A DNA stretch of 64,000 bases from Candidatus Omnitrophota bacterium (GCA_903884815.1 CAISGE010000058.1:6583-70582); one strand, 5' to 3'; shown: positions 1,886 to 62,664, counted from the stretch's first letter. The notes: a model not told the origin generated them from the sequence alone. Program-made: numbers and translations.

Positions 1886-4800
1886 TGAAAAAAAGTATCA
1901 CCAAAATTCAATCGCATGGAGCGGTGACAAAAGCGATCGCGCTAGCGGTGGCGTTCGTCTTTACGTGTACGAGCGTGACGTGGGCGGATCCCGCGGCCGC
2001 GTCGAAGACGTCTCTTGTTGCGCCCGCTCCCGTCGGCGACTTGGCGCTTGATCTCGGGAAGGTTTCTTTGCCGGCAGAGATGGGAAAGATCGTCGAGACC
2101 TATCGCGGCACGGGAGACAAAACCGTCGTGCTCGTTCAGGACGCGCACTCGATCCCCGACGCGCAGCGCAGCATTCGTTCCGTTATCGAATTCTTTCAGA
2201 AGAGCTACGGTGTATCGACTGTTGGACTCGAAGGCGCGGCGAGTGAACTCGACGCTCAGATCTTCAAAAGTTTTCCGGACAAGGAACGTCTCGAAAGAAC
2301 TTTTGATCAGTACGCGGCGCGTGGTGAGTTGACCGGAGGATCGGCGGCCGCGATCTTTAGCAAGGCCCCGGCAGAGTATCACGGGATCGAAGACTGGAAG
2401 CTTTACGAGCAAGGGATTGCCCTTTATCTCGCCGCGACAAAAGCCGGGGAGGCGGCCGGGCAACAGCTCGCGGAAGAGGAGATGAAACTTGAGGGCGAAA
2501 AGGCGACGGTTTATTCCAAAGAACTTCTCGAAGTAGACCGCGCCTTGAGGGATTTTGAGGCAAACAAGATTGATCTTGCCGCGCTTCTCGTCAGCCTGAA
2601 CCGTTATCTGGCACCGACCGCCGGTTCCGAGCTTGCGGTTCTCACGGCAGAGGTCGATCGCGAGGGCGTTTCGGACATCCCCGTCGAGACCGAGATCAAG
2701 GAAATCGCGAACAAAGCGGAAGCGTTTCTGAAAGCGGATCCTTCGACGGCAGGCGACTTCAAAACTCTCAACGGAAAAGTCCAAGAGTTCCGGACTGCTC
2801 AGATCACGCCGCAGGCCTTTGCACTCTATCTCAAGGAAATCGTCAAGCGTCATGGCATCAAGGTTAAAGTCTCGGCCAAGCTTGCTCGCCTTGTCCAAGA
2901 CCAGAAGCTCCTCCGCGACATCGAAGGCACGAAGCTGTTTGGTGACCTGAAACGGTACGAGGATCAAGTTAAAGCATCTCTGATGCGACCCACGGACACA
3001 CCGGGTGTGGACAGGGTTGAAGCGATGCGTGAACTTGATCGCCGGAGCAGAGGGCTGGATCTGCTGAAACGTCTTGCGAAGTTGGAACTCAGTTTTGAGG
3101 ATTGGACGATTGTAAAAAGGTCAACGGTCAACGGTCAACGGTCAACGAACACTCCCGGTGTGGAATATCGGAGTGGCAACGGCAACACACCGGGAGTGGA
3201 TAGGGTTGAACAACTGTCGATCGATCCCATTCTGCTCAGCAGGCTTGAAGAGAACATCCAGTTCTACCGCGTGGCCGAACAGCGCGACGCCGCCTTCTTC
3301 AAAAATCTCTCGTCTCTGATGCAGAAGGATTTTCGCCGTACGCCTTACGCCTTACGCCAGACGCCGCGATCAGCTTTGCTGATTGCGGGCGGCTTCCACA
3401 CCGGCGGCATGACGCGCATTTTCAAGGAGCAGGGGATCTCTTATCTCCTGATCCAGCCCAAGATCGCCCAAATGCCCACCGAGCCCCTTTACCGCGAGCA
3501 CATGCAGGGCAAAGTTTCCTGGAGCAAATATTTCGAAGTCCGTGATGGCCAAGTTAATCTGTATGACGCGTTTGTCCGCGGGGCGAGAGACCAGCTGTTA
3601 GGGACCGTTGATCTCAAGAATCCTCTTTCCGCCGTACTCCCTACTCCGTACTCCGTACGCAAAGATTGGCGCGACCAGATCCTCCGCGACCTCGCGGCCG
3701 AGGGACGGATCACGGAAGCTTCGTCTTACACCCGCTTTATCGATGAGTTGTCGTCGTCCGCCGTACACCGTACTCCGTACGCCGAAGAGTGGCTCGCGAA
3801 CATTCGCAAGTTCGGCGAAGGGCTCAAACAGCTGAAATTGGGTGGCACCCTCACCGTCGCCAACATCCAACAGCTTGTCCGTTCTATCACAATTCCCGCG
3901 ATGGCCATTGGGGCGGAACTGAGTCCTGATTCGACGTCCCTACCACTGGTTCGTCCAGAGTCAGATTCCCGGAATTTGGCGCAATCGATTTCCGGAGATT
4001 GGAAGGATGAACCGGCCAAACCCGAATCCCGCGCGCCTGATGCCATCGTCCACAATGAAGGCGAGCGACGTGAATTGCGGGAAAAAAGAAAGCGAGAGAT
4101 CCTCGATTGTGATCTCATGAAAAATCTTCAGAGCCGTTATCCGCGTGTCATGTCCTTTGTGGCGGAATTCCTGGAGCCGGACCATATTCTTAAAGAAAGG
4201 ATCATGAACGAGATCGATGGTCTTGAGGATGCGGCGGTTCTGGCGGAAGTGAATAACGGCCTTAACCAGTTCCCAGAGACGAGAGGCGTGAACGAGTATG
4301 GGCTATACAATCCGGCGACGGTGGAAACCCTCTTTCTGACCTTAACCGCGGGAATTGAAGATATACCGCAAGTACTTGCATCGATCAGCGCGGTGGCAAG
4401 CAGTATGTCGATCGAGCGCATGAAACAGTCGAAGGATGAATCTTATGTAATAAAACGGATCGAACACTTTTATCTATTTTTTCACGCATTGGAGATTCTA
4501 TCCAAAACTCAGGGGAAAGCGCTTATCGATCGCTTTGAGAGAGCGCTCGCTGAAGCCCGCGCCGAATCCCGCACGCCAAAAGGGAAGGCGGTTGTGTCTG
4601 AGACGCCGTCGGACAAGGTCAGGGTCCCGGACGAGCCGTGGAAGAATTTTCCAAATTTCAGCAAGAACCTTCAGGCCGCGCTCCGGCAGATCTTTGAAGA
4701 AATAAATAACGCTTATGGGAACAAGATCTTGCTGGCCTCGATAACACCTGAGTGCTCTATCATGAAGGGAACCGCGATGCCCTATTCCGACGCGGACGGA

Positions 4801-52611: not shown

Positions 52612-52639
52612 TTGGAATTTTTGCTGGAATCGGTATAAT
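52612..52639 (+). promoter_or_regulatory. candidate sigma70-like promoter (TTGGAA-16bp-TATAAT) about 170 bp upstream of tRNA-Glu
   Basis: TTGGAA at 52612-52617, 16-bp spacer, TATAAT at 52634-52639. The downstream leader contains several perfect short hairpins. Confidence 0.35.
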
Positions 52640-52805
52640 CCTCGCCTCGTGCTGGAACGAACGTCAAAGTTCGTTCTGGACACGTACCTGCGCATTAGGC
52701 GAAGGTACCACAGTTTTCGTGTCCCCATCGCACTTGCGCTTGTTGCGCAAGTACGGCTCTTCAGGAAATAGGACTTTCCTGTACGAAGGGGATAAAACAA
52801 AATAC

Positions 52806-52883
52806 GTCCCCATCGTCTAGGTTGGTCTAGGACACCAGGTTTTCATCCTGGTAACAGGGGTTCAAATCCCCTTGGGGACGCCA
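52806..52883 (+). tRNA. tRNA-Glu (anticodon UUC), CCA encoded
   Basis: Cloverleaf read by eye: acceptor GTCCCCA/TGGGGAC, anticodon stem CCAGG/CCTGG with loop TTTTCAT (anticodon TTC), T-arm AGGGG-TTCAAAT-CCCCT, discriminator G, CCA. Nearly collinear with E. coli tRNA-Glu. Confidence 0.9.
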
Positions 52884-54360
52884 ATCTTGATTCTGGAGCC
52901 GTCGCTTCTTGTAACACCTTGAAGAATATACAAGTTGCGGCGGTTCCAAATCTTCCTTCCAAAAACGGCAATCCCGCAGGAAATAGAACCTTCTGAAACC
53001 GCTGTTTCTGATCCAGATTCATTTCCATCCAGATGCGAGCGGGGTTCGACGCAAGATATCGCGCGAAGTTAAACGCTCCTTCAACATCCAAGGCCTCTAA
53101 TTTTGCTTGGTGGGCCTCTCCCTCAGCGATTGCTATCTCCTCGGCCAGTTTATCCCTTTGCTCGTCATAAGTTGCCTTAGAGATGCGTTTTTCGTAAATA
53201 AACGCCTCTTCCAGCTTATCTTTACGCCCTCTTAGTTCGTCCACGCATCTTTGCATGGATTTGCTTTGTGCCGTAGCCGCAGCTTCCTGATCGTGCCATT
53301 TATCCAAGACAATGGCTTTTAAAAGATTCAAATACTCAGGTACGGGAATTAGCTGTTCAAGGTGGCTGATAAACTCCTTTTCCAACGCGCCTTTGCTTAC
53401 GTTTATGGCCTTGCATCGGCTGTTAGGACAACGGTAATAGGGGTATTTCTTGGTGCGTCCTTTTGACCAGCTTGCCGTCAAAGGCCGGGAGCATGTTCCA
53501 CATTGCACAAATTGACGAAGGGGGAAGTCGGGATGATTCCTCTGATAAGGGGTTATGGTGTGTTTTTTTCCAGCGAGAACATCTTGGACTTTGTAAAAAA
53601 GAGCTTTTTCGATGATTGGTTCGTAATGACCCTCTTCGGGTTGATCGGTGAGCTTGGTCTTCATAATTCCCGTATAAAGAGAATTTTTTAGTATGTCTTC
53701 AAAAGTTTGGAGGCTGATTTTGTTACCCTTGCGCGTTCGCAAGCCAAGGTCATGAATCATCCTGAGAACTTGAGGACGGGCATAAAGGGCTGTCGCATAA
53801 AGTTCAAATGCTTTTTTAATCAATGGGGCGCGTTCAGGGTCCGGGATGATGTTGCCCTGTCCTTTGGGGGCCTGATTTCGCAAATACCCTAAAGGTGCTT
53901 GAAAGGTCCATCGGCCATGTCCTAGGGCCGCTTTCATGCCCGTTTTCGTTCTCTCGGCCTTAACATCGTTATCGAACTGCGCGAAGGCAGCAAGCATGTT
54001 CTCTGTCAGCTTACCGGTAGAAGAATCCCCGGTTTGTTCAGTAGCCGAACGGAGTGAAATTCCAATGGTTTTTAAAAAGACCGACATAGCGGCATGATCG
54101 TAGCTGTTTCGTGCAAAGCGGCTTATTTGATAAACAACGAGGAACTGAATTTTCCCCTTGTTCTGTCGGCAATAAGTGAGCATTTTTTGAAATTCCGGTC
54201 GAGCGGTAGTTTTTGCAGACTCGCCTTCGTCTATGAAAATTTGGTCTGCTTCAATGCCATGGTGTTGGCAATATGCGAGACAGGCTTTTCGTTGGGTGGG
54301 AAGGCTTTCAGTAAGAACTTGTTCTTTTGTGCTTACTCGGCAATAAATGATAGCTCGCAT
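52843..54360 (-). CDS. large serine recombinase (serine integrase); 3' end overlaps tRNA-Glu
   Basis: N-terminus MRAIIYCRVSTKEQ with catalytic Ser, resolvase-like catalytic domain, recombinase domain, Cys-rich zinc ribbon (CGTCSRPL...YYRCPNSRC) and coiled-coil C-terminus. 505 aa. Confidence 0.85.
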   Translation of the reverse strand: MRAIIYCRVSTKEQVLTESLPTQRKACLAYCQHHGIEADQIFIDEGESAKTTARPEFQKMLTYCRQNKGKIQFLVVYQISRFARNSYDHAAMSVFLKTIGISLRSATEQTGDSSTGKLTENMLAAFAQFDNDVKAERTKTGMKAALGHGRWTFQAPLGYLRNQAPKGQGNIIPDPERAPLIKKAFELYATALYARPQVLRMIHDLGLRTRKGNKISLQTFEDILKNSLYTGIMKTKLTDQPEEGHYEPIIEKALFYKVQDVLAGKKHTITPYQRNHPDFPLRQFVQCGTCSRPLTASWSKGRTKKYPYYRCPNSRCKAINVSKGALEKEFISHLEQLIPVPEYLNLLKAIVLDKWHDQEAAATAQSKSMQRCVDELRGRKDKLEEAFIYEKRISKATYDEQRDKLAEEIAIAEGEAHQAKLEALDVEGAFNFARYLASNPARIWMEMNLDQKQRFQKVLFPAGLPFLEGRFGTAATCIFFKVLQEATAPESRLASPRGFEPLLPG

Positions 54361-54365
54361 CGTTT

Positions 54366-54641
54366 TTATTCCCTCTTGCGCGAATGGTGAAAAGCCTGAG
54401 CTTCTGCCTCGCTTCTTGGCAGCCCTGCATCGAACTCCATTATTGCAGCTCTTTCACTTTCCGCATTCGTTAATTTTTCGGTCTTCGTGGAAGCGGAAAC
54501 GGGCATAAAGCCTTTTTGACGATATATCGCGTTACTGATATCGGCAAGCCCATTGAGCTGATCGCGGAGCAATTCTAAATCCGAATCTGAAAGATTGCAA
54601 CTTGGGCCGACGATTTTACGGCATTGAGATACCGATAGCAT
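54366..54641 (-). CDS. small hypothetical protein directly upstream of the recombinase gene (possible accessory/directionality factor, speculative)
   Basis: 91-aa ORF on the same strand, ending 6 bp before the recombinase start. No recognisable motif. Confidence 0.35.
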   Translation of the reverse strand: MLSVSQCRKIVGPSCNLSDSDLELLRDQLNGLADISNAIYRQKGFMPVSASTKTEKLTNAESERAAIMEFDAGLPRSEAEAQAFHHSRKRE

Positions 54642-55090
54642 AGCAGCCTCGACCTATGCGCATAGAAGCAGGGAGAGGGTGCTCGCGTCGGACCGCCTTG
54701 AGGTTGGCAAAATAAAACATCAAGTGATTCCCCCTAGCGCGTTTGCTGCCCGGAAATAAAAAACCCCGGAACAGATATGTTCAACCACATATCTATCCAG
54801 GGCCACGCAAGGGGTAATCCCAAGTGAGGGTGTCCCAGAAAGGGCGTTTTAGATTCACTCCCGGGCCCTTGCCAAAGGGGTGTCCGAGGGGCTTTCCGCA
54901 CTGGGTACTTACCGACGATAAACCCAGCACTTAATTCCTACAATTTCAGAATATCATCATTTAGATTTTGGATGCAAGATATTTTTTAGCCGATTATTTT
55001 TAACCGATTATTCTAAGTTAATCCAGGTGGTTTTTTTGTTTTTGCAGAGTTAAACTGCGTAAGTGGTGACTGTGAAAATAGGAGGGGGTT

Positions 55091-55264
55091 ATGGGGATAA
55101 AAGTGTTAAAAAATATTGCTCGTGAATATAAGTCAAAGCTAAGGCAAAGCAGGAGGGAAGCGATTCAAGCGCAGACTTCCCAGGGGAATAAAGTGACTTC
55201 TTCTCTCGTTGTTGAACTGAGAAAATCCGCCAGGGAATATAAGAAGAAACTACGAGGAATCTAA
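55091..55264 (+). CDS. 57-aa basic protein with internal duplicated motif (below the ORF-track cutoff)
   Basis: Strong SD AGGAGGGGG at 55079-55087, 3 nt before the ATG at 55091. Translation is MGIKVLKNIAREYKSKLRQSRREAIQAQTSQGNKVTSSLVVELRKSAREYKKKLRGI, and the IAREYKSKLR / SAREYKKKLR motif is repeated. Confidence 0.45.
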   Translation: MGIKVLKNIAREYKSKLRQSRREAIQAQTSQGNKVTSSLVVELRKSAREYKKKLRGI

Positions 55265-55298
55265 GGGGAAAAGATGATGAGCGGATTCAGAGAGAAAA

Positions 55299-55787
55299 AT
55301 GAAAGCTGATCTTCTGCCGGCGATTATGAAACAATTTCAACTTAGACAGGATTCCATCCACGGCATAGAGCATTGGAGGCGTGTTGGGGGACTGGGACTT
55401 ATGCTTGCGGAGAAAACGGGGGCGGATAGGAATGTCATCAGCCTGTTTGCGTATCTTCACGATTCTAAGCGTGAGAATGAATTTGTGGACCTAGAGCATG
55501 GTGCGAGAGCAGCCGAGTTCGTGACGGAACTTTATAAGACGGGGAAAATGTCTATTTCCGAAAAGCAGTTGGAACAGCTTACCTATGCCTGTCGTTATCA
55601 TAGCGATCTGAACGCCAAGTCAGACGATATTACGGTTATGACCTGTTGGGATGCCGATAGGCTCGATCTCTGGCGGGTTGGGGAAACCCCCGATCCGGCA
55701 CGGCTCAATACAGATGCCGCGAAAGTACCAGCCATGATCGAATATAGCGGGCAGATGACGAAAGATTTTTTAAAAGGCGATCGTTAA
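55299..55787 (+). CDS. HD-domain phosphohydrolase-like protein
   Basis: HGIEHWRRVG...FAYLHDSKRE gives an H...HD metal-binding pattern. 162 aa. Confidence 0.55.
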   Translation: MKADLLPAIMKQFQLRQDSIHGIEHWRRVGGLGLMLAEKTGADRNVISLFAYLHDSKRENEFVDLEHGARAAEFVTELYKTGKMSISEKQLEQLTYACRYHSDLNAKSDDITVMTCWDADRLDLWRVGETPDPARLNTDAAKVPAMIEYSGQMTKDFLKGDR

Positions 55788-55796
55788 AGGCGAGAA

Positions 55797-56018
55797 TTAA
55801 ATCTTTTCTGTTTCCCGAAGCAGTTGCGAGAGGGGCGTTTTTAAGGCTTTTGCAATTTTAGAACATACTTCTATTCCTGCCGCCACTTTTCCGGATTCAA
55901 TAGAGCTGACATAGGTCCGATGGATCTCCGCAAGCTCAGCAAATCTCTCCTGGGATAGACCAAGTTTCTGCCTTCTTCGTCTCACCACCACTCCAAAATG
56001 CCGCTTGATGTCCGTCAT
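55797..56018 (-). CDS. XRE/Cro-CI family helix-turn-helix transcriptional regulator
   Basis: LGLSQERFAELAEIHRTYVSSIESGK is a classic HTH_3 pattern. 73 aa. Divergent from the gene at 56106. Confidence 0.75.
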   Translation of the reverse strand: MTDIKRHFGVVVRRRRQKLGLSQERFAELAEIHRTYVSSIESGKVAAGIEVCSKIAKALKTPLSQLLRETEKI

Positions 56019-56080
56019 CCATACCCTCGCTTTTGTAAGGGTATGGTGCTATCATGCAGACGATATATCTACAGACGATA
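56019..56080. promoter_or_regulatory. divergent intergenic operator-like region: 9-bp perfect inverted repeat plus CAGACGATA direct repeats
   Basis: CCATACCCT (56019-56027) pairs with AGGGTATGG (56038-46), abutting the XRE start codon. CAGACGATA occurs at 56057-56065 and 56072-56080. Confidence 0.4.
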
Positions 56081-56105
56081 GTCTACAAATAAATAAAGGA
56101 TACTT

Positions 56106-56969
56106 ATGGGAACGGTTATCTCATTAGTCGCGTTATTTTTTCTCATCGTAATGTTTCTTCCCCATCTCTCCCGTAAAGCGAATCCAAAGTTGAGGATTAT
56201 TCTCATAGTTATAATCATGATGTGGGCTACGTTTTGGATCGACAATCAAAATCAGTTGCCTTTTAGAGATCCTTTTGTGGTGGGGAAGGAATTTGTTTGC
56301 GGCTTAATCATTCAAGATAAAACAGCGATGGAAGCCGTCTCGTCAAATAAGGAATTGAACCGAAAAGTTGCGGCGTTAATTCCGAACGATTATAACAATC
56401 TTCGTGACGAGATAATAAAAGGTTCTGGAAGTGATGTTTTTCGCGAAGTTTCCAGAATGGATTATCTAGAGCCTCGTGATCGTTCCGGCCGTCTCGAACT
56501 CATTTCGTTTGCTAAATACGCCCAGTTTGATGATTCCCGGTGGGAAACGCCGTTCATTATTTGCACGTACGCTTACGGCGTAAACGAAGATGATAACAAC
56601 CGTTTCTTTTATTACACATTGCTCTTGCGATCAATATACTCACCTACTCTTTGGGAGAAATCCAGGCAATGGATTCATAAAATTCCTTTTATTGGAGATA
56701 GGCTTTGTGCGTATCCAGATAGCAAGCCCAAATGGATCGTAGAAGGCTTTTACACAAAAGATAACTATATGGCGTTTGCTCTAGATCAAATCAAAACAAT
56801 TGACGAGATCACTAATCTGCCTGACAAGCAAAAAAACGGATACTTTGAAAAAGTTTCTAAGCTCGCTTCCATCGATTTAAGCAGCATAATGAAATTCTCC
56901 GGAGTGGAACTTTTAGAGAAGCAAAATCAAGAAGCGAGGGAAATATCAACAACGGTGAATCAAAATTAA
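56106..56969 (+). CDS. hypothetical membrane-anchored protein
   Basis: RBS AAGGA 6 nt upstream. Two N-terminal hydrophobic helices (VISLVALFFLIVMFL, IILIVIIMMWATFWI). 287 aa, AT-rich codon usage. Confidence 0.5.
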   Translation: MGTVISLVALFFLIVMFLPHLSRKANPKLRIILIVIIMMWATFWIDNQNQLPFRDPFVVGKEFVCGLIIQDKTAMEAVSSNKELNRKVAALIPNDYNNLRDEIIKGSGSDVFREVSRMDYLEPRDRSGRLELISFAKYAQFDDSRWETPFIICTYAYGVNEDDNNRFFYYTLLLRSIYSPTLWEKSRQWIHKIPFIGDRLCAYPDSKPKWIVEGFYTKDNYMAFALDQIKTIDEITNLPDKQKNGYFEKVSKLASIDLSSIMKFSGVELLEKQNQEAREISTTVNQN

Positions 56970-57151
56970 ACCATCTGCAGCTCAAAAGTATCTGTGGAGC
57001 AATTAAAACAATCCGTGGAGTTTTAACGGTTTTATGATACCGTCCATTTCTGGCGGGGAAAATAATTTCCGCAATGAGTTTACCGTTTCAACAGGAGCAT
57101 AACAAATGCTTGGCCCAATGCTAAACGTGTAATCTTTAAAGAGAAAAGACC

Positions 57152-58279
57152 ATGAAGAAAAAATGCGCCGTATTATTTTTGATACTTCTGCTTCCGTTGA
57201 ATGCCTATGCTGAAGACAAAGAAATCGTTACCCGAACTGGGCAGTCCACAGGTTTATATGTTCATGAAAATAATCCGATACAGCAATATCAAAGCACAAT
57301 GAGGATGACGAATCAAACGCCGGGAGTTAGCGTGGACCCGTATATGGCAAGTACTGGTGGGCGAAATCTTCAAACGATCGGAAGTGGTATGCAAAATTCT
57401 TTTTTCCAATTATCAAATAAGTTGGCCGCCAGAGATCTTGCTGCGGCCGCAAGTGACTTTCAGCTGCGATTAAGCAATATCCAAACTAGTGCTACGCTAG
57501 ACAAGGATTGTTCCGAATTGGCTTTGATCAAATATCAGGGGGAGATTGAACGGGCTGTTTCCGACTCTTCTCGCCTTGTTGGTCGCTCGGGGGATAGAAG
57601 GCGGTTTACAAATCAAGCAAAGACAAACGCAACGATTTTAAGAAACGAAATACTCATCGAATTTTCTCGAAAAAGAAAAGACGCGGGGCTGCCAGAATTT
57701 GATAGTTCGTTCATAGAAAAAGTTATTGCTGGAACGGTAACTAATCCTGGTAATTCTTCCGTCCCGTTTGAAGGAGAAGTGTATTTCAAAAAAGGTGAAG
57801 TTGATAAAGCTCTCTCTTATTGCAACAAGGCCATTGAAACAAACAAGGAAGATGCGCGAGCTTACTCTCTGCGAGGATTTATCTATCTTACTAAAGGCGA
57901 TTTAGATGGGGCCATGTCTGACAGCAGCAAGGCCATATCAATAAATCCTATATTCTCGGGAGGCTATAATACGCGAGGGGCGGCCTATTTTGAGAAGGGG
58001 GTTTTCGACAAAGCGATTTCGGATTACAAGACAGCTATAGAGCTCGATCCTTTGGCTACTATTGTTTACTGCAACCGAGGATTAGCTTATTACCGCTTAG
58101 GACAGTATGAGGAAGCACTTGATGATTATATGGTTTTTTATGTTACCGGAAAATTGTCCAAGGAAGATTGCCGTGGAGCTTATGATGACTTTGTGAAATA
58201 TGCTCCAAACAAGGCTCCGACAGACACAATGGATATAAGAAGTCAAATACTTGGACTTTTAAAAGAAAAGATGGGATGA
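57152..58279 (+). CDS. secreted TPR-repeat protein
   Basis: Signal peptide MKKKCAVLFLILLLPLNAYA. At least four TPR-like units in the C-terminal half (AYSLRGFIYLTKGDLDGAMSDSSKAISINP, NTRGAAYFEKGVFDKAISDYKTAIELDP, YCNRGLAYYRLGQYEEALDDY). Confidence 0.65.
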   Translation: MKKKCAVLFLILLLPLNAYAEDKEIVTRTGQSTGLYVHENNPIQQYQSTMRMTNQTPGVSVDPYMASTGGRNLQTIGSGMQNSFFQLSNKLAARDLAAAASDFQLRLSNIQTSATLDKDCSELALIKYQGEIERAVSDSSRLVGRSGDRRRFTNQAKTNATILRNEILIEFSRKRKDAGLPEFDSSFIEKVIAGTVTNPGNSSVPFEGEVYFKKGEVDKALSYCNKAIETNKEDARAYSLRGFIYLTKGDLDGAMSDSSKAISINPIFSGGYNTRGAAYFEKGVFDKAISDYKTAIELDPLATIVYCNRGLAYYRLGQYEEALDDYMVFYVTGKLSKEDCRGAYDDFVKYAPNKAPTDTMDIRSQILGLLKEKMG

Positions 58280-58310
58280 CGCGGCAGAGAAAAACAGAAA
58301 GGGTTAAACC

Positions 58311-58529
58311 GTGAAAATTATGCACCGTTCTATCCTTATAGGGCTTGTCGTAGTCGCGATGTTTTTTTCTTGGAAAATGGAAAACGTAAGAGCTGGGTGG
58401 AGTGATGAGTCAGAGCGAGCGTATCAAACGCAGGAAGTAACGAGTGCAATTCGAGATCAAACAATGCAACAGCTTAATATCGCCAACGACCAGGCCGTCC
58501 AAGAAAGATTAGAGCAAAACCGAAGATGA
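58311..58529 (+). CDS. small membrane protein
   Basis: 72 aa with an N-terminal TM helix ILIGLVVVAMFFSW. Weakly supported. Confidence 0.3.
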   Translation: MKIMHRSILIGLVVVAMFFSWKMENVRAGWSDESERAYQTQEVTSAIRDQTMQQLNIANDQAVQERLEQNRR

Positions 58530-58671
58530 TATTGAAAAGAAAACAGAGAGGATAAAGGATCAAAGTGTTTGATGGTCCTGCTGGATGCGCGGGCTAACGC
58601 CACAGCGTGTGGAGATGCTGATAATGGGCGGAAAACGTAGCTGCCTTATTTTGGTTTACTGAAAAAGGAGG

Positions 58672-58878
58672 ATGAGAATAAAAAAGTTTTTTTCAGTGCT
58701 GCTAATGCTTGTTCTTTTTACCACCCCGGCTTTTGCATATCATGATTTCGAGACCGTTAGTGATGCCCAGGATCGGCACCAAGCGGAGCATTACGAGCAG
58801 AGACAAGCGAACGGTGGCAATGAACCTTTGGGTGGATATTCCGATAAGCTCGGCGATTCGTCTGGTCGCAGCAATTAA
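58672..58878 (+). CDS. small secreted peptide, paralog A (signal peptide plus 45-aa mature region)
   Basis: AAGGAGG immediately upstream. Signal peptide ...LLMLVLFTTPAFA. The mature part YHDFETVSDAQDRHQAEHYEQRQANGGNEPLGGYSDKLGDSSGRSN is near-identical to paralog B. Confidence 0.6.
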   Translation: MRIKKFFSVLLMLVLFTTPAFAYHDFETVSDAQDRHQAEHYEQRQANGGNEPLGGYSDKLGDSSGRSN

Positions 58879-58922
58879 AATATGATGGATGTTGTCAGAC
58901 AATCTACGAATAAGAGGTATCG

Positions 58923-59396
58923 ATGTCGCAATCGCAAAGCAAGCCGCTACGAACTAACTACTTAAAGCGATTATGGCTGACAATGTCTTGGAACGTTGTG
59001 TGGTATGCCGTTTATGCTTTATGGATATTATTTCATTATGTAATTCCTACTGCGATTAGTGTATTTCATAATTTGGGATGGATTTATAAATACTCCACAT
59101 GGGAAATCTTTATTTCTCCCGCGGCGTATATTTTTCTTTCTTTATCTATCGGTTCAATTTTCTTTCCAATCCAATGTCTTTTTCTAATACCAGGTTATTT
59201 TGATAAAACAGTCGAACAACTATTTCGCAGAAGATATTTATGGACGCTACTCACATTCATTGGCTTGCCTGTGGCAATGGCGGTCATCGGGTTTATTCTT
59301 TGGGGATCTTGTCCGTTAGATGTCGACAAAGATTCTTTTATCCATCTTAGATTCATCCCATTTTTCCCCTGGCCAAGTGAGCCTTTCTTTACATGA
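58923..59396 (+). CDS. hypothetical polytopic membrane protein
   Basis: 157 aa with about 4 hydrophobic helices, rich in W/Y/F. Confidence 0.45.
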   Translation: MSQSQSKPLRTNYLKRLWLTMSWNVVWYAVYALWILFHYVIPTAISVFHNLGWIYKYSTWEIFISPAAYIFLSLSIGSIFFPIQCLFLIPGYFDKTVEQLFRRRYLWTLLTFIGLPVAMAVIGFILWGSCPLDVDKDSFIHLRFIPFFPWPSEPFFT

Positions 59397-59405
59397 TGTG
59401 ATTTT

Positions 59406-59798
59406 ATGCATGACGAGATAATGCAGGAAAAATGGCCGGAGTTTGAAAAACAATTTAAGCAATATGCGGAGTTTGGACCATTTTTAGCAAAGGTTGGCTA
59501 TTCCGAAACGATGGCTGAGGCGCGTAAACGCTTGCGGAAGATCGTTAGGGAATCCCGCGGCAAAAACTTTGCCGAAGAATCGAAGCGGTTAGTTTTTAGG
59601 GAGTTTGCCATATTCCTCCTTATGCTTTACCGCATCCAAGTGACCCACAAGGAAGCATGTGAGTGTTCGGTATGCTTCAATTTTCGTCGTCTGTTCAGTC
59701 TCTTTTTCAGGAAATCCAAGCGAGGACTCAGTTTTTTCTTCGATACGGGTAAGCACTTTGACGGAGACGTTGGCTTTCGTTTAACAGATGTTGTATAA
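59406..59798 (+). CDS. hypothetical protein
   Basis: 130-aa ORF starting 10 bp after the previous stop. No motif recognised. Confidence 0.35.
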   Translation: MHDEIMQEKWPEFEKQFKQYAEFGPFLAKVGYSETMAEARKRLRKIVRESRGKNFAEESKRLVFREFAIFLLMLYRIQVTHKEACECSVCFNFRRLFSLFFRKSKRGLSFFFDTGKHFDGDVGFRLTDVV

Positions 59799-59837
59799 GC
59801 TGTTGGAATAGCCCATAGAGAGAGCGATAAAAAATGA

Positions 59838-60386
59838 TTGCGGAAAAGCATTATGTGGACGCCCGTTAGGCTATCGATTTTGATCCTTTTCATATTTTCT
59901 GCGGCCAACGTAGGGTTTGCAGACGAGGATGCTAAATCAAAAGCTGTTGCAAAAAATGTTGCAACCGATATTGAGAGGCAAATCGATGAGATGACCCAAA
60001 GAGGGAACGAGAGAAAAATGTACTATCATAAAAAAATTCAGGAGTCTTTAGAAAATTCTGCAAAAGAGATCTCGATGCCGGGATGGCGTCGTCAATGGAT
60101 GTTAGAAAATGAAGCAAGAGATCAGCAGGAGTACGCCAAAATTGATGCAATCTCTGAACAAAAAATCAAAGATGGGAAAAAACAAATATTGGATCTTCCC
60201 GAAGACGTTTGGCGCAAAGAATACATCTCGGCTACCGAAGACGCAAAGGGGGGAGTCATTCTTTTTTATGAAACTATTTTGGACGGCCTAGTCCAAGATG
60301 GTTATATAACAACGACGGAATCTGCGGATAGAAAAAGTAGAGCCGCTAGGGAATGGCCGGAAGCTCGTGCGGCGTATGGGCGATAA
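59838..60386 (+). CDS. hypothetical secreted protein
   Basis: Signal-like N-terminus MRKSIMWTPVRLSILILFIFSAANVGFA. 182 aa. Confidence 0.45.
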   Translation: MRKSIMWTPVRLSILILFIFSAANVGFADEDAKSKAVAKNVATDIERQIDEMTQRGNERKMYYHKKIQESLENSAKEISMPGWRRQWMLENEARDQQEYAKIDAISEQKIKDGKKQILDLPEDVWRKEYISATEDAKGGVILFYETILDGLVQDGYITTTESADRKSRAAREWPEARAAYGR

Positions 60387-60491
60387 TATTTCTGGTGATC
60401 TTGCGCAAGAGAGTCAAACTATCCCAAAAGATTTATTTAAAGGCTCTTTTCTGAGTGCTGATGAAGTGAGTTTGAAAACAAGGAGGACATT

Positions 60492-60692
60492 ATGAAAAAG
60501 GTTCTATTTGTAGTAGTTGCTATGTTGGTTATATCAACCCCAGTTTTTGCATATCACGATTTCGAGACCGTTAGTGATGCCCAGGATCGGCACCAAGCGG
60601 AGCAATATGAGCAGAGGCAAGCGAACGGTGGGAATGAGCCTTTAGGTGGATATTCCGATAGGCTCGGCGATTCGTCTGGTCGTACCAATTAA
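60492..60692 (+). CDS. small secreted peptide, paralog B
   Basis: AAGGAGG 5 nt upstream. Signal MKKVLFVVVAMLVISTPVFA. The mature region is about 93% identical in nucleotides to paralog A. Confidence 0.65.
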   Translation: MKKVLFVVVAMLVISTPVFAYHDFETVSDAQDRHQAEQYEQRQANGGNEPLGGYSDRLGDSSGRTN

Positions 60693-60717
60693 AAGTTAGC
60701 TGAAATTATTTCAGCCA

Positions 60718-61116
60718 ATGACGAAAGACAAGCCTAATATCCTTATTGATGCCGAATGGGATGGTCTCGGAGAATATTTGTCCGAATTTCTAACGGATAA
60801 TGATTTTAAAGTAACTGTGATAGAGGCGAATTTTGACAGCGAAAAAATTATTTCAGAATTATCCAGAGGAACCTATGCCGTAGTCATATTGACCGAGAAT
60901 TGTTCCCCGTCTAAGCGATGGCCAGATGCAGCAAAACAACTTTTAGATGCAGTGTCGGAAGTTAAGAGGAAATGCCCGAAGGTTTATTGTGTGGTTATGG
61001 GTGGGCAACATGATATAGATTTCGTGATCGGACTTGAAAGGCGAGGGATTGACGATTTTTTTCCATTGCCATTCAAAACCGAATATCTTCTCAGTCGGAT
61101 CGAAAAAGCCATTTAA
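60718..61116 (+). CDS. receiver (CheY)-like domain protein lacking the canonical phospho-acceptor Asp (pseudo-receiver, tentative)
   Basis: A (beta-alpha)5-like hydrophobic pattern (NILIDAEWDG ... YAVVILTENCS ... KVYCVVMGG). The expected Asp position reads TEN. Confidence 0.3.
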   Translation: MTKDKPNILIDAEWDGLGEYLSEFLTDNDFKVTVIEANFDSEKIISELSRGTYAVVILTENCSPSKRWPDAAKQLLDAVSEVKRKCPKVYCVVMGGQHDIDFVIGLERRGIDDFFPLPFKTEYLLSRIEKAI

Positions 61117-61134
61117 TTACTCGGAGAGAGAAAA

Positions 61135-61449
61135 ATGAAACCGGTGAAGCTCCAGTTCCTACAAGAAGCGGGGCTGTACGAAGTACCGGACGACCTCCTG
61201 GAAAAGTATTGCCAGGACAACAATCTGGAGGAGGGGGAAGTGTACGAGTTCCTTCCGAACCCCGAGACCGGCCTACCGATGATTTTGGGGAATCGCCCGA
61301 GCCCATCGTTCCACAAGAAGTTAGACCAACTCCTGCAAGAAGCGACGTCCCTCGAGGAACTAAGAGCGATAAAAGACTCGCAGGAAAGGACTCTCGAAGG
61401 ATTGGAAGTTCTGCTGTCTCTAAGGTCGGATATACTAGCGATGGCATAA
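61135..61449 (+). CDS. hypothetical protein
   Basis: 104 aa. GGAGAGAG upstream. Confidence 0.35.
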   Translation: MKPVKLQFLQEAGLYEVPDDLLEKYCQDNNLEEGEVYEFLPNPETGLPMILGNRPSPSFHKKLDQLLQEATSLEELRAIKDSQERTLEGLEVLLSLRSDILAMA

Positions 61450-61466
61450 TTGCATTATCGCAAACT

Positions 61467-61994
61467 CTAGTTGCTCTGTCCGGCTAATTCTCTTTCCCTT
61501 TCTTCCATAGCTCTGAAAACCCTAAGAAACGAGATTTCCTCGCCGATTGATTTCCCAAAGACTTTCTGAAACATTTCGTCGATTTTGTGAGCAGCTGTTT
61601 TGAACCCCATCCCACGGATAAAGTCTTTAAATGATACCTCGTTTGAAGCACCTGCCAGGTCCAATAAGAATTGGTTTGCCTTTAAAGAGGCACTTTCATT
61701 CTTGGCTTTTTGGGAGAGGATGATAATTCGATCAATTGCATATTGGGCTTCCTCCCGGGCTCGATTTAATGCTCCCGTGATTTTGTTTTGAGCTTCTTGC
61801 TGCTGAATTGCGGCAAAGTCCCTGTAGGCAGATTCCAATCTTCCGCCCTCCATAAACAAGTTTCTAACATAAGCTTCACTATATCCGGTAGCATCAGCGA
61901 TGTCTTTGGAAGTTTTACCCAAATATCGCATTTCAATAGCTTGGCGTCTTTTTTCATTCAAGGTCTTTGGTTTAGATGTTGTCTTTTGTTGCAA
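61467..61994 (-). CDS. HTH-containing protein (sigma-70 region-4-like / phage terminase small-subunit-like)
   Basis: LNEKRRQAIEMRYLGKTSKDIADATGYSEAYVRNLF is a region-4/LuxR-type HTH. 175 aa. Confidence 0.45.
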   Translation of the reverse strand: MQQKTTSKPKTLNEKRRQAIEMRYLGKTSKDIADATGYSEAYVRNLFMEGGRLESAYRDFAAIQQQEAQNKITGALNRAREEAQYAIDRIIILSQKAKNESASLKANQFLLDLAGASNEVSFKDFIRGMGFKTAAHKIDEMFQKVFGKSIGEEISFLRVFRAMEERERELAGQSN

Positions 61995-62017
61995 TTTGTC
62001 ACTTCCTCGGATTCAGG

Positions 62018-62359
62018 TCATCCGACGTCAAAATGCAAAGGTTTGCCGTCGATTATTATTGGCCCCATCTGGGTGTAGGTAGGTTCGCTTTGGACTACTT
62101 TCTGTGTCACTTTGCCGTCTACCCGATCTAAAATCTCTTTGATCGCTGAAACCTCGCCATTCAGGCCGCTCCAAACCAATCGCAATATAAGAGCTTTTTT
62201 CCCCGGCATCGTTAACTTCAATCCCGACTCGGGATCGCTAATACTAAAGTCTCCTTCCAAGACCTTTCTGAGGAGGGGGCCAAGATAAGGACCTTTTTGA
62301 GTATGGTCTTTACGATTCACTGGAAAGCGTGTTCTTTTCGGCGGTGCCGGCGTTGGCAT
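62018..62359 (-). CDS. hypothetical protein
   Basis: 113-aa ORF co-oriented with 61467..61994, 23 bp apart. Confidence 0.35.
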   Translation of the reverse strand: MPTPAPPKRTRFPVNRKDHTQKGPYLGPLLRKVLEGDFSISDPESGLKLTMPGKKALILRLVWSGLNGEVSAIKEILDRVDGKVTQKVVQSEPTYTQMGPIIIDGKPLHFDVG

Positions 62360-62644
62360 ATTCCCCCCTCAAATCAGCCTCAAATCTATTTCGTTTCGTT
62401 TTAAAACGTCTTTTAAAGCCCAAAGGCTTCATAATGGTCGTTACTAGCCCATGAGCCAGACACTCCTTGCTCCATGAACTCTAAGACCCTCGCACCCACA
62501 TTTCATGATTCTAATACCGTTGGGGAGTATATTTCATAGACGAAAAGCCGCTTTTGGGTAGAATACAGCCCGTTATACATTGCAAGCGTCCCTTAGAAGC
62601 TCGACTTCGCGCAACCATTGATATAATTGGTTCCAATCATTTTG

Positions 62645-62664
62645 GCTTAGGGACGCCAATTTTC
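62645..62664 (+). repeat. attR-like imperfect copy of the tRNA-Glu 3' end
   Basis: CTTAGGGACGCCAATTTTCA versus the tRNA 3' end CTTGGGGACGCCAATCTTGA. Confidence 0.4.

Follow-up and report, generated by a model that had tools for sequence, protein, structure and literature searches.

A large serine recombinase that reads into tRNA-Glu and a candidate attachment site within its own gene

Serine integrases act on simple, short attachment (att) sites, with a 2-bp crossover and little identity between attP and attB; integration recombines attP with attB, and excision requires a directionality factor. Here we describe an island of 9.8 kb that adjoins a tRNA-Glu gene in a stretch of 64,000 nucleotides from a Candidatus Omnitrophota bacterium (GCA_903884815.1 CAISGE010000058.1:6583-70582; this whole stretch is called the window) and in which the gene of a large serine recombinase (LSR) runs into the tRNA. 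The LSR resembles phiC31, Bxb1, A118, TP901-1, SPbeta SprA and CcrAB in combining Resolvase, Recombinase and zinc-ribbon domains with a long coiled coil, and its element resembles theirs in having the integrase gene beside attP and what appear to be short att cores; the nearest solved structure is that of the SPbeta integrase (9dxh, E-value 1.7e-7). It differs from these enzymes in belonging to a clade that appears to target the tRNA 3' terminus and not a protein-coding gene, that appears to carry attP inside the recombinase open reading frame (ORF), so that the C-terminus would depend on the integration state, and that has an extra conserved C-terminal domain with a tethered helix. In a large survey of LSRs, tRNA is never mentioned (PMC10083194).

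Islands and prophages of tyrosine integrases (P4-like and others) share with the present locus the insertion at a tRNA 3' end, the regeneration of the tRNA from element sequence, an integrase gene beside it and an atypical base composition. Their enzymes, however, belong to an unrelated superfamily, the repeat of the window type is much shorter (~9-12 bp), and the window-type LSR gene, unlike theirs, extends into the tRNA in antisense orientation. Attachment sites within coding regions also have precedents. In mycobacteriophage BPs, attP lies in a coding region, and the prophage product has a shorter C-terminus; the virally encoded form of the BPs repressor carries an ssrA-like tag and is unstable until integration truncates it (PMC4557955). 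The split gene of BPs is that of the repressor and its integrase is a tyrosine recombinase, whereas in the window the split gene would be that of the serine recombinase itself. The SSV-type integrases of Sulfolobus fuselloviruses, as outlined in PMC5861418, are encoded by genes that contain the att site and are interrupted by integration. These enzymes are tyrosine recombinases of archaea, and integration divides their gene into two fragments, whereas in the window the last 25 codons would be exchanged and a full catalytic protein remains encoded; because the SSV type is defined by a tyrosine recombinase partitioned by its own att site and the enzyme here is a serine recombinase, the likeness is one of analogy only. 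Serine recombinases beside tRNA-Glu, tRNA-Phe and tRNA-Pro have been reported in Thermotogota proviruses (10.1101/2020.11.07.368316), and the streptococcal element IME_Spy2096_SNF2 has an att site inside its serine integrase gene (PMC5357655). Both are likened here by description, and the two reports describe neither a conserved state-dependent tail nor a family-wide tRNA overlap. In the literature that we searched, we found partial precedents only and no description of the clade or of a family-wide, state-dependent swap of C-terminal tails.

Recombinase, tRNA target and island ends

We consider it highly probable that positions 52875/52886 to 62660 of the window constitute a 9.8-kb element that was integrated by its LSR and whose recombinase gene is split between its two ends. 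The integrated enzyme has an N-terminal catalytic Resolvase domain (PF00239, E-value 4.4e-34, residues 3-151) with the motif YCRVS and the nucleophilic Ser10, together with a Recombinase domain (PF07508, 7e-15) and a zinc ribbon (PF13408, 4e-8) with an embedded coiled coil. A comparison of 40 homologues showed R8, S10 and further residues to be invariant, and all family-invariant residues are retained in the window LSR. No tyrosine integrase was seen among the scanned island ORFs. As the first-pass annotation had claimed, the recombinase ORF enters the 3' end of tRNA-Glu: its last 41 nucleotides lie, antisense, inside the 3' part of this tRNA, which is the single tRNA that ARAGORN finds in the 64 kb (tRNA-Glu(ttc)). 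The protein ends in R-LAS-PRGFEPLLPG, of which the last 10 residues (PRGFEPLLPG) are antisense tRNA; GFEP corresponds to the T-loop read antisense, and the TGA stop codon (52843-52845) to the antisense of U35-C36-A37 in the anticodon loop. The overlap turned out to have a further meaning, namely that attP would lie inside the recombinase gene.

The island is bounded by the tRNA gene on one side and, on the other, by a directly repeated copy of the 3' part of that tRNA. The core GGGACGCCAAT occurs exactly twice in the 64 kb, both times on the same strand, and 17 of 20 positions match when the pair is extended; this is the imperfect copy of the tRNA 3' end that had been noticed about 9.8 kb downstream in the first reading of the sequence. 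The interior is indeed AT-richer than the flanks, as also claimed there, with a GC content of 0.439 as against 0.539 upstream and 0.536 downstream, an atypical composition of the kind expected of a tRNA-associated island. When the outer flanks of the two repeat copies are joined, the reconstructed attB reads from tRNA-Glu directly into a strong hairpin, which is likely the original tRNA-Glu terminator, displaced by 9.8 kb through the insertion. The promoter-like site upstream of the tRNA belongs to the host and not to the island; a related locus discussed below (L005) has a similar sequence ahead of its tRNA. The leader between the promoter-like site and tRNA-Glu is unusually long (165 nt), and in it the 5' end of the tRNA is repeated over 10 nt (GTCCCCATCG, 52721-52730). 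This copy is statistically marginal, 2 matches having been reached in 3 of 100 shuffles, and was possibly left behind by a rearrangement in the past. An Rfam scan of the island and the tRNA leader returned the tRNA alone and no further RNA family.

The right end of the island is fixed, independently of the repeat, by a detached piece of the recombinase gene. If the repeats are joined as in a circle, the LSR ORF stays open across the core (LAS) and acquires 25 further codons, which are in frame with the LSR only in the circular island, and the product has 520 residues. Joined repeat copies likewise give a conserved tail, xSWNQ[IV]xxWLxx[VM]xx[LF]R, in 11 related loci, the conserved helix also being written as WNQ[IL]xxWLxx[VM]xxLR, and a profile made from these tails detects 12 further loci outside its building set. 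A leave-one-out profile, built without the window's own tail, has a single match in the six-frame translation of the window (62579-62650, minus strand, E-value 7.6e-7; next best 0.11), and this match abuts the repeat copy. All tail-profile matches with E-values below 0.02 lie on the strand of the LSR and, in integrated loci, upstream of it. The tail is conserved at the protein level: the codon-position entropies (1.34, 0.85 and 1.50 for positions 1, 2 and 3) bear a coding signature and the hydrophobic residues follow an i/i+3/i+4/i+7 pattern, which together imply that it is selected as a protein and as an amphipathic helix. In most elements the tail ORF is open for 23-37 codons. Free-form tails end in -AA in 17 of 47 cases and in -A in 26 of 47; the former ending resembles the ssrA-like tail of BPs in sequence, and the window tail ends in -NV.

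Since the joined ORF runs through the core and tail-bearing free forms occur without a tRNA (see the next section), attP is placed within the recombinase gene. Integration is thereby predicted to exchange the last 25 residues of the LSR for 10 tRNA-encoded ones, and the ORF whose C-terminus differs between the free and the integrated product is that of the recombinase. The att cores of 20 related loci show identity over 6-22 bp, and these blocks intersect in 4 nucleotides at approximately tRNA positions 71-74, which places the crossover at the acceptor end of the tRNA, probably within these positions. The LSR itself presumably catalyses the reaction.

The recombinase family in genomes and viral contigs

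The anatomy of the window recurs in dozens of relatives. A protein search with the LSR gave 3084 matches at E<1e-20; the best 120 of them are 47-69% identical and mostly ~505 aa long, and nearly all of these 120 end in tRNA-antisense peptides such as ..SPTGFEPVLPP, ..TLPGIEPGLPP or ..APRGIEPRFNG. A set of 80 related genome loci (LSRs 33-69% identical, 72 of them with a complete LSR ORF) spans Verrucomicrobiota, Acidobacteriota, Omnitrophota, Myxococcota, Gammaproteobacteria, Patescibacteria and other phyla. In this set, 66 of the 72 complete ORFs either terminate within an antisense tRNA or continue through it; the tRNA is tRNA-Glu (UUC or CUC) in 53 cases and tRNA-Arg, -Ala, -Asn, -Pro, -Leu or -Gln in the remainder, and the overlap measures exactly 41 nt, as in the window, at 51 loci. 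Copies of the tRNA 3' terminus, 9-22 nt long, recur in related loci upstream of the LSR stop codon, at a distance of 3.3-11.2 kb from it; the exact terminal 9-mer was found on the side and strand expected for it at 15 of 65 loci, compared with 2, 4 and 1 in three control configurations.

A metagenome-assembled genome of the Acidobacteriaceae (MFD02579.bin.1.114) holds three family members (L029, L030 and L038) on three contigs, each at tRNA-Glu(ttc), which implies that several tRNA-Glu copies are occupied in one genome; the LSR ORF of L038 stops ahead of the tRNA and looks disrupted.

Of the clusters of an exhaustive library built at 50% identity, 2402 match the LSR at E<1e-30, and at least 101 of the 150 best diverse representatives have tRNA-antisense ends. 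Cultured phage and plasmid LSRs are, at their best match, at most 30% identical. The first-pass statement that tRNA islands driven by serine recombinases are less common therefore describes cultured organisms well and metagenomes poorly. Judging from these sequences, the LSR clade is large, phylogenetically widespread and uncharacterised, and is apparently aimed at tRNA 3' ends, mostly those of tRNA-Glu.

Tail-bearing forms without a tRNA exist within the family. A contig of 5509 nt (L063, CAZWRK010000210.1) has a terminal overlap of 55 nt and so represents a circle of 5454 bp, which has no tRNA and encodes an LSR of 521 aa with the tail; it is a minimal free family member. Besides the LSR, the circle encodes a membrane protein, an HTH_Tnp_1_2 protein and a protein of 546 aa that contains an Mrr-like restriction endonuclease domain, a cargo that is possibly defence-related. 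Two further loci (L088 and L089) have the tail and the attP core TTTGGCGACCCTAAC within the LSR ORF and no tRNA. Family members were also found on viral contigs of 42-47 kb in IMG/VR. The viral contigs L095 (..LPRAA) and L097 (..TPLAA) have the tail and no tRNA, and in the proviral L094, L096 and L099 the LSR ends in antisense tRNA-Arg, tRNA-Ala or tRNA-His.

Partner protein, cargo and feature coordinates

Across 24 delimited elements of 3.3-11.2 kb, the conserved core consists of the LSR and a small protein alone, and the other cargo is variable (coordinates for the window are collected in Table 1). The small protein has a homologue at the same position in 22 of the 24 elements, with the motif MLSLEQCRK..LSDEELExLRDxLYxLA, and is a candidate accessory or directionality factor. 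ORFs of about 300 aa upstream of the partner gene encode a MerR-type helix-turn-helix (HTH) protein (261-332 aa) that is common to L008, L020, L024 and L053 and absent from the window island. Homologues of the XRE regulator are present in 4 of the 24 elements.

All the cargo named in the first-pass annotation (XRE, HD and tetratricopeptide repeat (TPR) proteins and duplicated small peptides) was found. The genes of the duplicated peptides are ~90% identical in DNA over 58706-58880 and 60518-60694, and their products share the motif ..FAYHDFETVSDAQDRHQAE.YEQRQANGGNEPLGGYSD.LGDSSGR.N; the three ORFs between the copies matched no known family. PADLOC gave no match for the 287-aa and TPR proteins (56106..58279). 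The 175-aa HTH protein at the far end is like sigma-70 region 4, with a weak match to terminase small subunits (E-value 1e-3), and in the circular form it and its neighbour would lie downstream of the LSR tail. Compared with Pfam, PHROGs, NCBIfam and PADLOC, the island ORFs yielded weak matches only and no defence, replication, conjugation or structural genes. Outside the island, a giant gene consisting of a single ORF of 7071 aa (31249-52464, plus strand) ends 340 nt upstream of tRNA-Glu.

Table 1. Features of the island and its borders, in window coordinates
Feature	Coordinates	Strand	Remarks
Promoter-like site TTGGAA-16-TATAAT upstream of tRNA-Glu	52612..52639	+	10/12 consensus positions
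tRNA-Glu(UUC), intact; predicted integration target (attB-derived part of attL)	52806..52883	+	ARAGORN; Rfam tRNA, 58.7 bits
Putative attL core GGGACGCCAAT: terminal 9 nt of the tRNA (with CCA) and 2 nt beyond	52875..52885	+	
LSR, integrated form, 505 aa	52843..54360	-	Resolvase, Recombinase, Zn_ribbon_recom domains
Small conserved protein (91 aa), gene directly upstream of that of the LSR	54366..54641	-	No Pfam match
HD-domain protein, cargo	55299..55787	+	PF01966 borderline; phrog_3921 4.5e-9
XRE-family HTH regulator, 73 aa	55797..56018	-	HTH_3, 7e-16
287-aa protein, hydrophobic N-terminal region	56106..56969	+	No family match
TPR protein, 375 aa, signal-like N-terminus	57152..58279	+	
Cargo block: two 66-68-aa peptides flanking ORFs of 157, 130 and 182 aa	58672..60692	+	
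Duplicated 66-68-aa peptides, signal-like N-terminus	58672-58878 and 60492-60692	+	
132-aa receiver-like domain protein and 104-aa ORF	60718..61449	+	Weak response-regulator matches
Island-end genes on the LSR strand: 175-aa HTH protein and 113-aa ORF	61467..62359	-	
Detached LSR 3' end: 25 codons (LSQNDWNQLYQWLREVELLRDACNV) and stop codon	62573..62650	-	Joined-repeat ORF; leave-one-out profile
Putative attR core GGGACGCCAAT	62650..62660	+	
Strong hairpin, stem TTTTCAAGCCGG / CCGGCTTGAAAA	62657..62695	+	Free energy (dG) -22.8 kcal/mol, z-score -5.8

Integration, tail exchange and competing explanations

How might the recombinase insert its island? We envision a scenario whereby the element's own LSR inserts it at the 3' terminus of tRNA-Glu(UUC) and strand exchange takes place within the last few nucleotides of the tRNA. 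The element would re-supply these terminal nucleotides, and the tRNA would thus stay intact. Integration would cut the LSR gene and strand its last 25 codons (62576-62650, minus strand), which encode the amphipathic helix, at the opposite island end, and the integrated ORF would run into the antisense tRNA, gain the tRNA-encoded residues and stop at the TGA; excision to a circle would restore the LSR of 520 aa. That this tRNA-Glu island was mobilised by an LSR rather than a tyrosine integrase, as initially proposed, is supported by the family arrangement, the repeats, the free forms and the fact that no tyrosine integrase was seen among the ORFs scanned. The tail swap may be functionally relevant, either for stability, about a third of the free-form tails having an ssrA-like -AA, or for activity or directionality. 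In such a scheme the free enzyme would have a tethered C-terminal helix, often with this ending, and the integrated enzyme a short tRNA-encoded tail. Conceivably, the LSR senses its own integration state, each reaction rewriting its gene and the tail swap setting its directionality, its half-life or both, a proposal that we regard as tentative and rather doubtful. A built-in switch of this kind would complement or replace a separate directionality factor across tRNA-targeting serine integrases.

A number of observations weigh against this scenario or against the role of the tail, and they bear on several competing explanations. The adjacency of LSR and tRNA might be coincidental and the repeat might have arisen by chance, with the AT-rich block having other boundaries or another origin. 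Taken alone, the 11-mer is within chance, with P ~0.12 by Markov resampling for an exact match of at least 11 nt between a 57-nt tRNA-end seed and the 11 kb downstream, and the control strands gave matches of 10-11 nt. The repeat nevertheless coincides exactly with the tRNA 3' terminus, and its significance derives from this position, from the abutting leave-one-out tail match and from the restored tRNA with its hairpin, and not from the 11-mer by itself; a doubt raised at the outset, that the repeat might be insignificant given local composition, was thus justified for the 11-mer and is lifted by the independent evidence. Together with the family-wide arrangement and the GC step at both ends, these findings effectively refute a coincidence, which we hold to be extremely improbable. 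Dyad symmetry of the aligned attP and attB sequences was rejected as a guide to the central dinucleotide, the attP signal being weak and attB being dominated by the tRNA T-arm. It is also conceivable, if unlikely, that the island was delivered by the LSR and has since become fixed, as a resident remnant with an inactive or idle recombinase. Contig searches found neither an empty attB nor a circle junction of this island; among the contigs listed or read, all those with the right flank, from several samples (JGI 3300009502; ENA BUCK21-1, ERZ1426xxx and ERZ27313102), carry the island and join it to the same flank. A degenerate pattern for attB, attP, attL and attR junctions had one match in metagenome contigs and none in viral contigs. 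The match (L087, Ga0182027_10308939, 1620-1786) is a decayed attL-type junction, in which ~110 nt of a decayed LSR 3' end lie beside tRNA-Glu, with an unrelated gene for a membrane protein after them; this looks like the scar of a lost or deleted relative of the island. The end of the window tail, -ACNV where the closest relatives have -ACAA, would also be in keeping with a fixed remnant. Such a remnant is difficult to reconcile with an LSR ORF that is intact and keeps all family-invariant residues, and with a detached 25-codon tail that is still open and readily recognised by the profile. Moreover, at L005 (ERZ18625568 scaffold_17194, 3124-3577) the left end of the island is 100% identical and has a different 5' flank (window boundary 52805/52806); the tRNA-Glu there differs by one single-nucleotide polymorphism in the D-loop (T to C), and the promoter lies just ~25 nt from the tRNA. 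This context is present in at least two samples and could be a second occupied tRNA-Glu site, and then a recent insertion, or an assembly chimera through the tRNA; no alternative right junction that fits it was found, the contigs read (short contigs left out) sharing one right flank.

A further possibility, to which we give limited credence, is that the element, instead of being an autonomous island, is a decayed prophage or a phage satellite in need of a helper phage for its transfer. The family members on viral contigs of IMG/VR, the XRE regulator, the weak matches of the 175-aa HTH protein to terminase small subunits and phage HTH proteins and the serine recombinases beside tRNA-Glu in Thermotogota proviruses are consistent with this. 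That no transfer, replication or packaging genes were identified in the island scans counts against our main reading. As to a prophage or satellite, the scans recognised none of the genes for capsid, tail, lysis, replication or primase functions, the matches to terminase are weak, and the delimited relatives are just 3.3-11.2 kb long, with variable cargo around their two-gene core. Satellites resembling phage-inducible chromosomal islands combine an integrase, a repressor, a replication module and genes that redirect packaging within 10-15 kb; of these, an integrase and an XRE regulator are present in the window island, and a replication module was not found. With regard to the tail, its exchange might be a tolerated by-product without regulation, and its conservation might reflect DNA recognition in an attP half-site, which we consider quite unlikely. 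The most conserved tail codons, TGG AAC CAG (WNQ), do lie at ~20 bp from where the crossover is placed, a distance that the attP arm of an LSR is expected to span, and many LSRs tolerate C-terminal changes. An AlphaFold model of the tail-bearing homologue P0050 has a confident LSR body (mean predicted local distance difference test score 86.8) with long paired helices at 340-419 and shows the tail as a low-confidence helix behind a disordered linker, without docking, in an output that does not report contacts. DNA recognition would, however, hardly account for conservation that extends 40-60 nt past the core, beyond a typical attP, for the amphipathic periodicity, for an entropy that is lowest at codon position 2, for a reading frame kept open in most elements, or for the -AA ending, which has no obvious explanation at the DNA level. 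The -ACNV terminus of the window tail is not an ssrA-like degradation tag, and, set against the -ACAA of its closest relatives, it suggests that the degron idea may not hold here or that this copy is drifting.

We thus favour an LSR-integrated element with attP in its own recombinase gene. Compared with the precedents, what appears to be new on the sequence evidence is the combination of a tRNA-terminus target with an attP in the ORF of the LSR itself and a family-wide, state-dependent tail. For annotation, this arrangement accounts for the common recombinase ORFs of ~505 aa that end in ..TGFEPV..., and the detached WNQ..WL tail delimits such islands. The clade would target the acceptor end of tRNA-Glu, which is among the most conserved of bacterial sequences, across many phyla, and it is invisible to surveys limited to protein-coding targets. 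Serine integrases are major tools of genome engineering, and the choice of direction is a central question of the field. If the tail swap controls stability or direction, the family would possess a natural, self-contained state switch, which would parallel the engineered fusions of integrases with recombination directionality factors and the integration-dependent immunity of mycobacteriophages.

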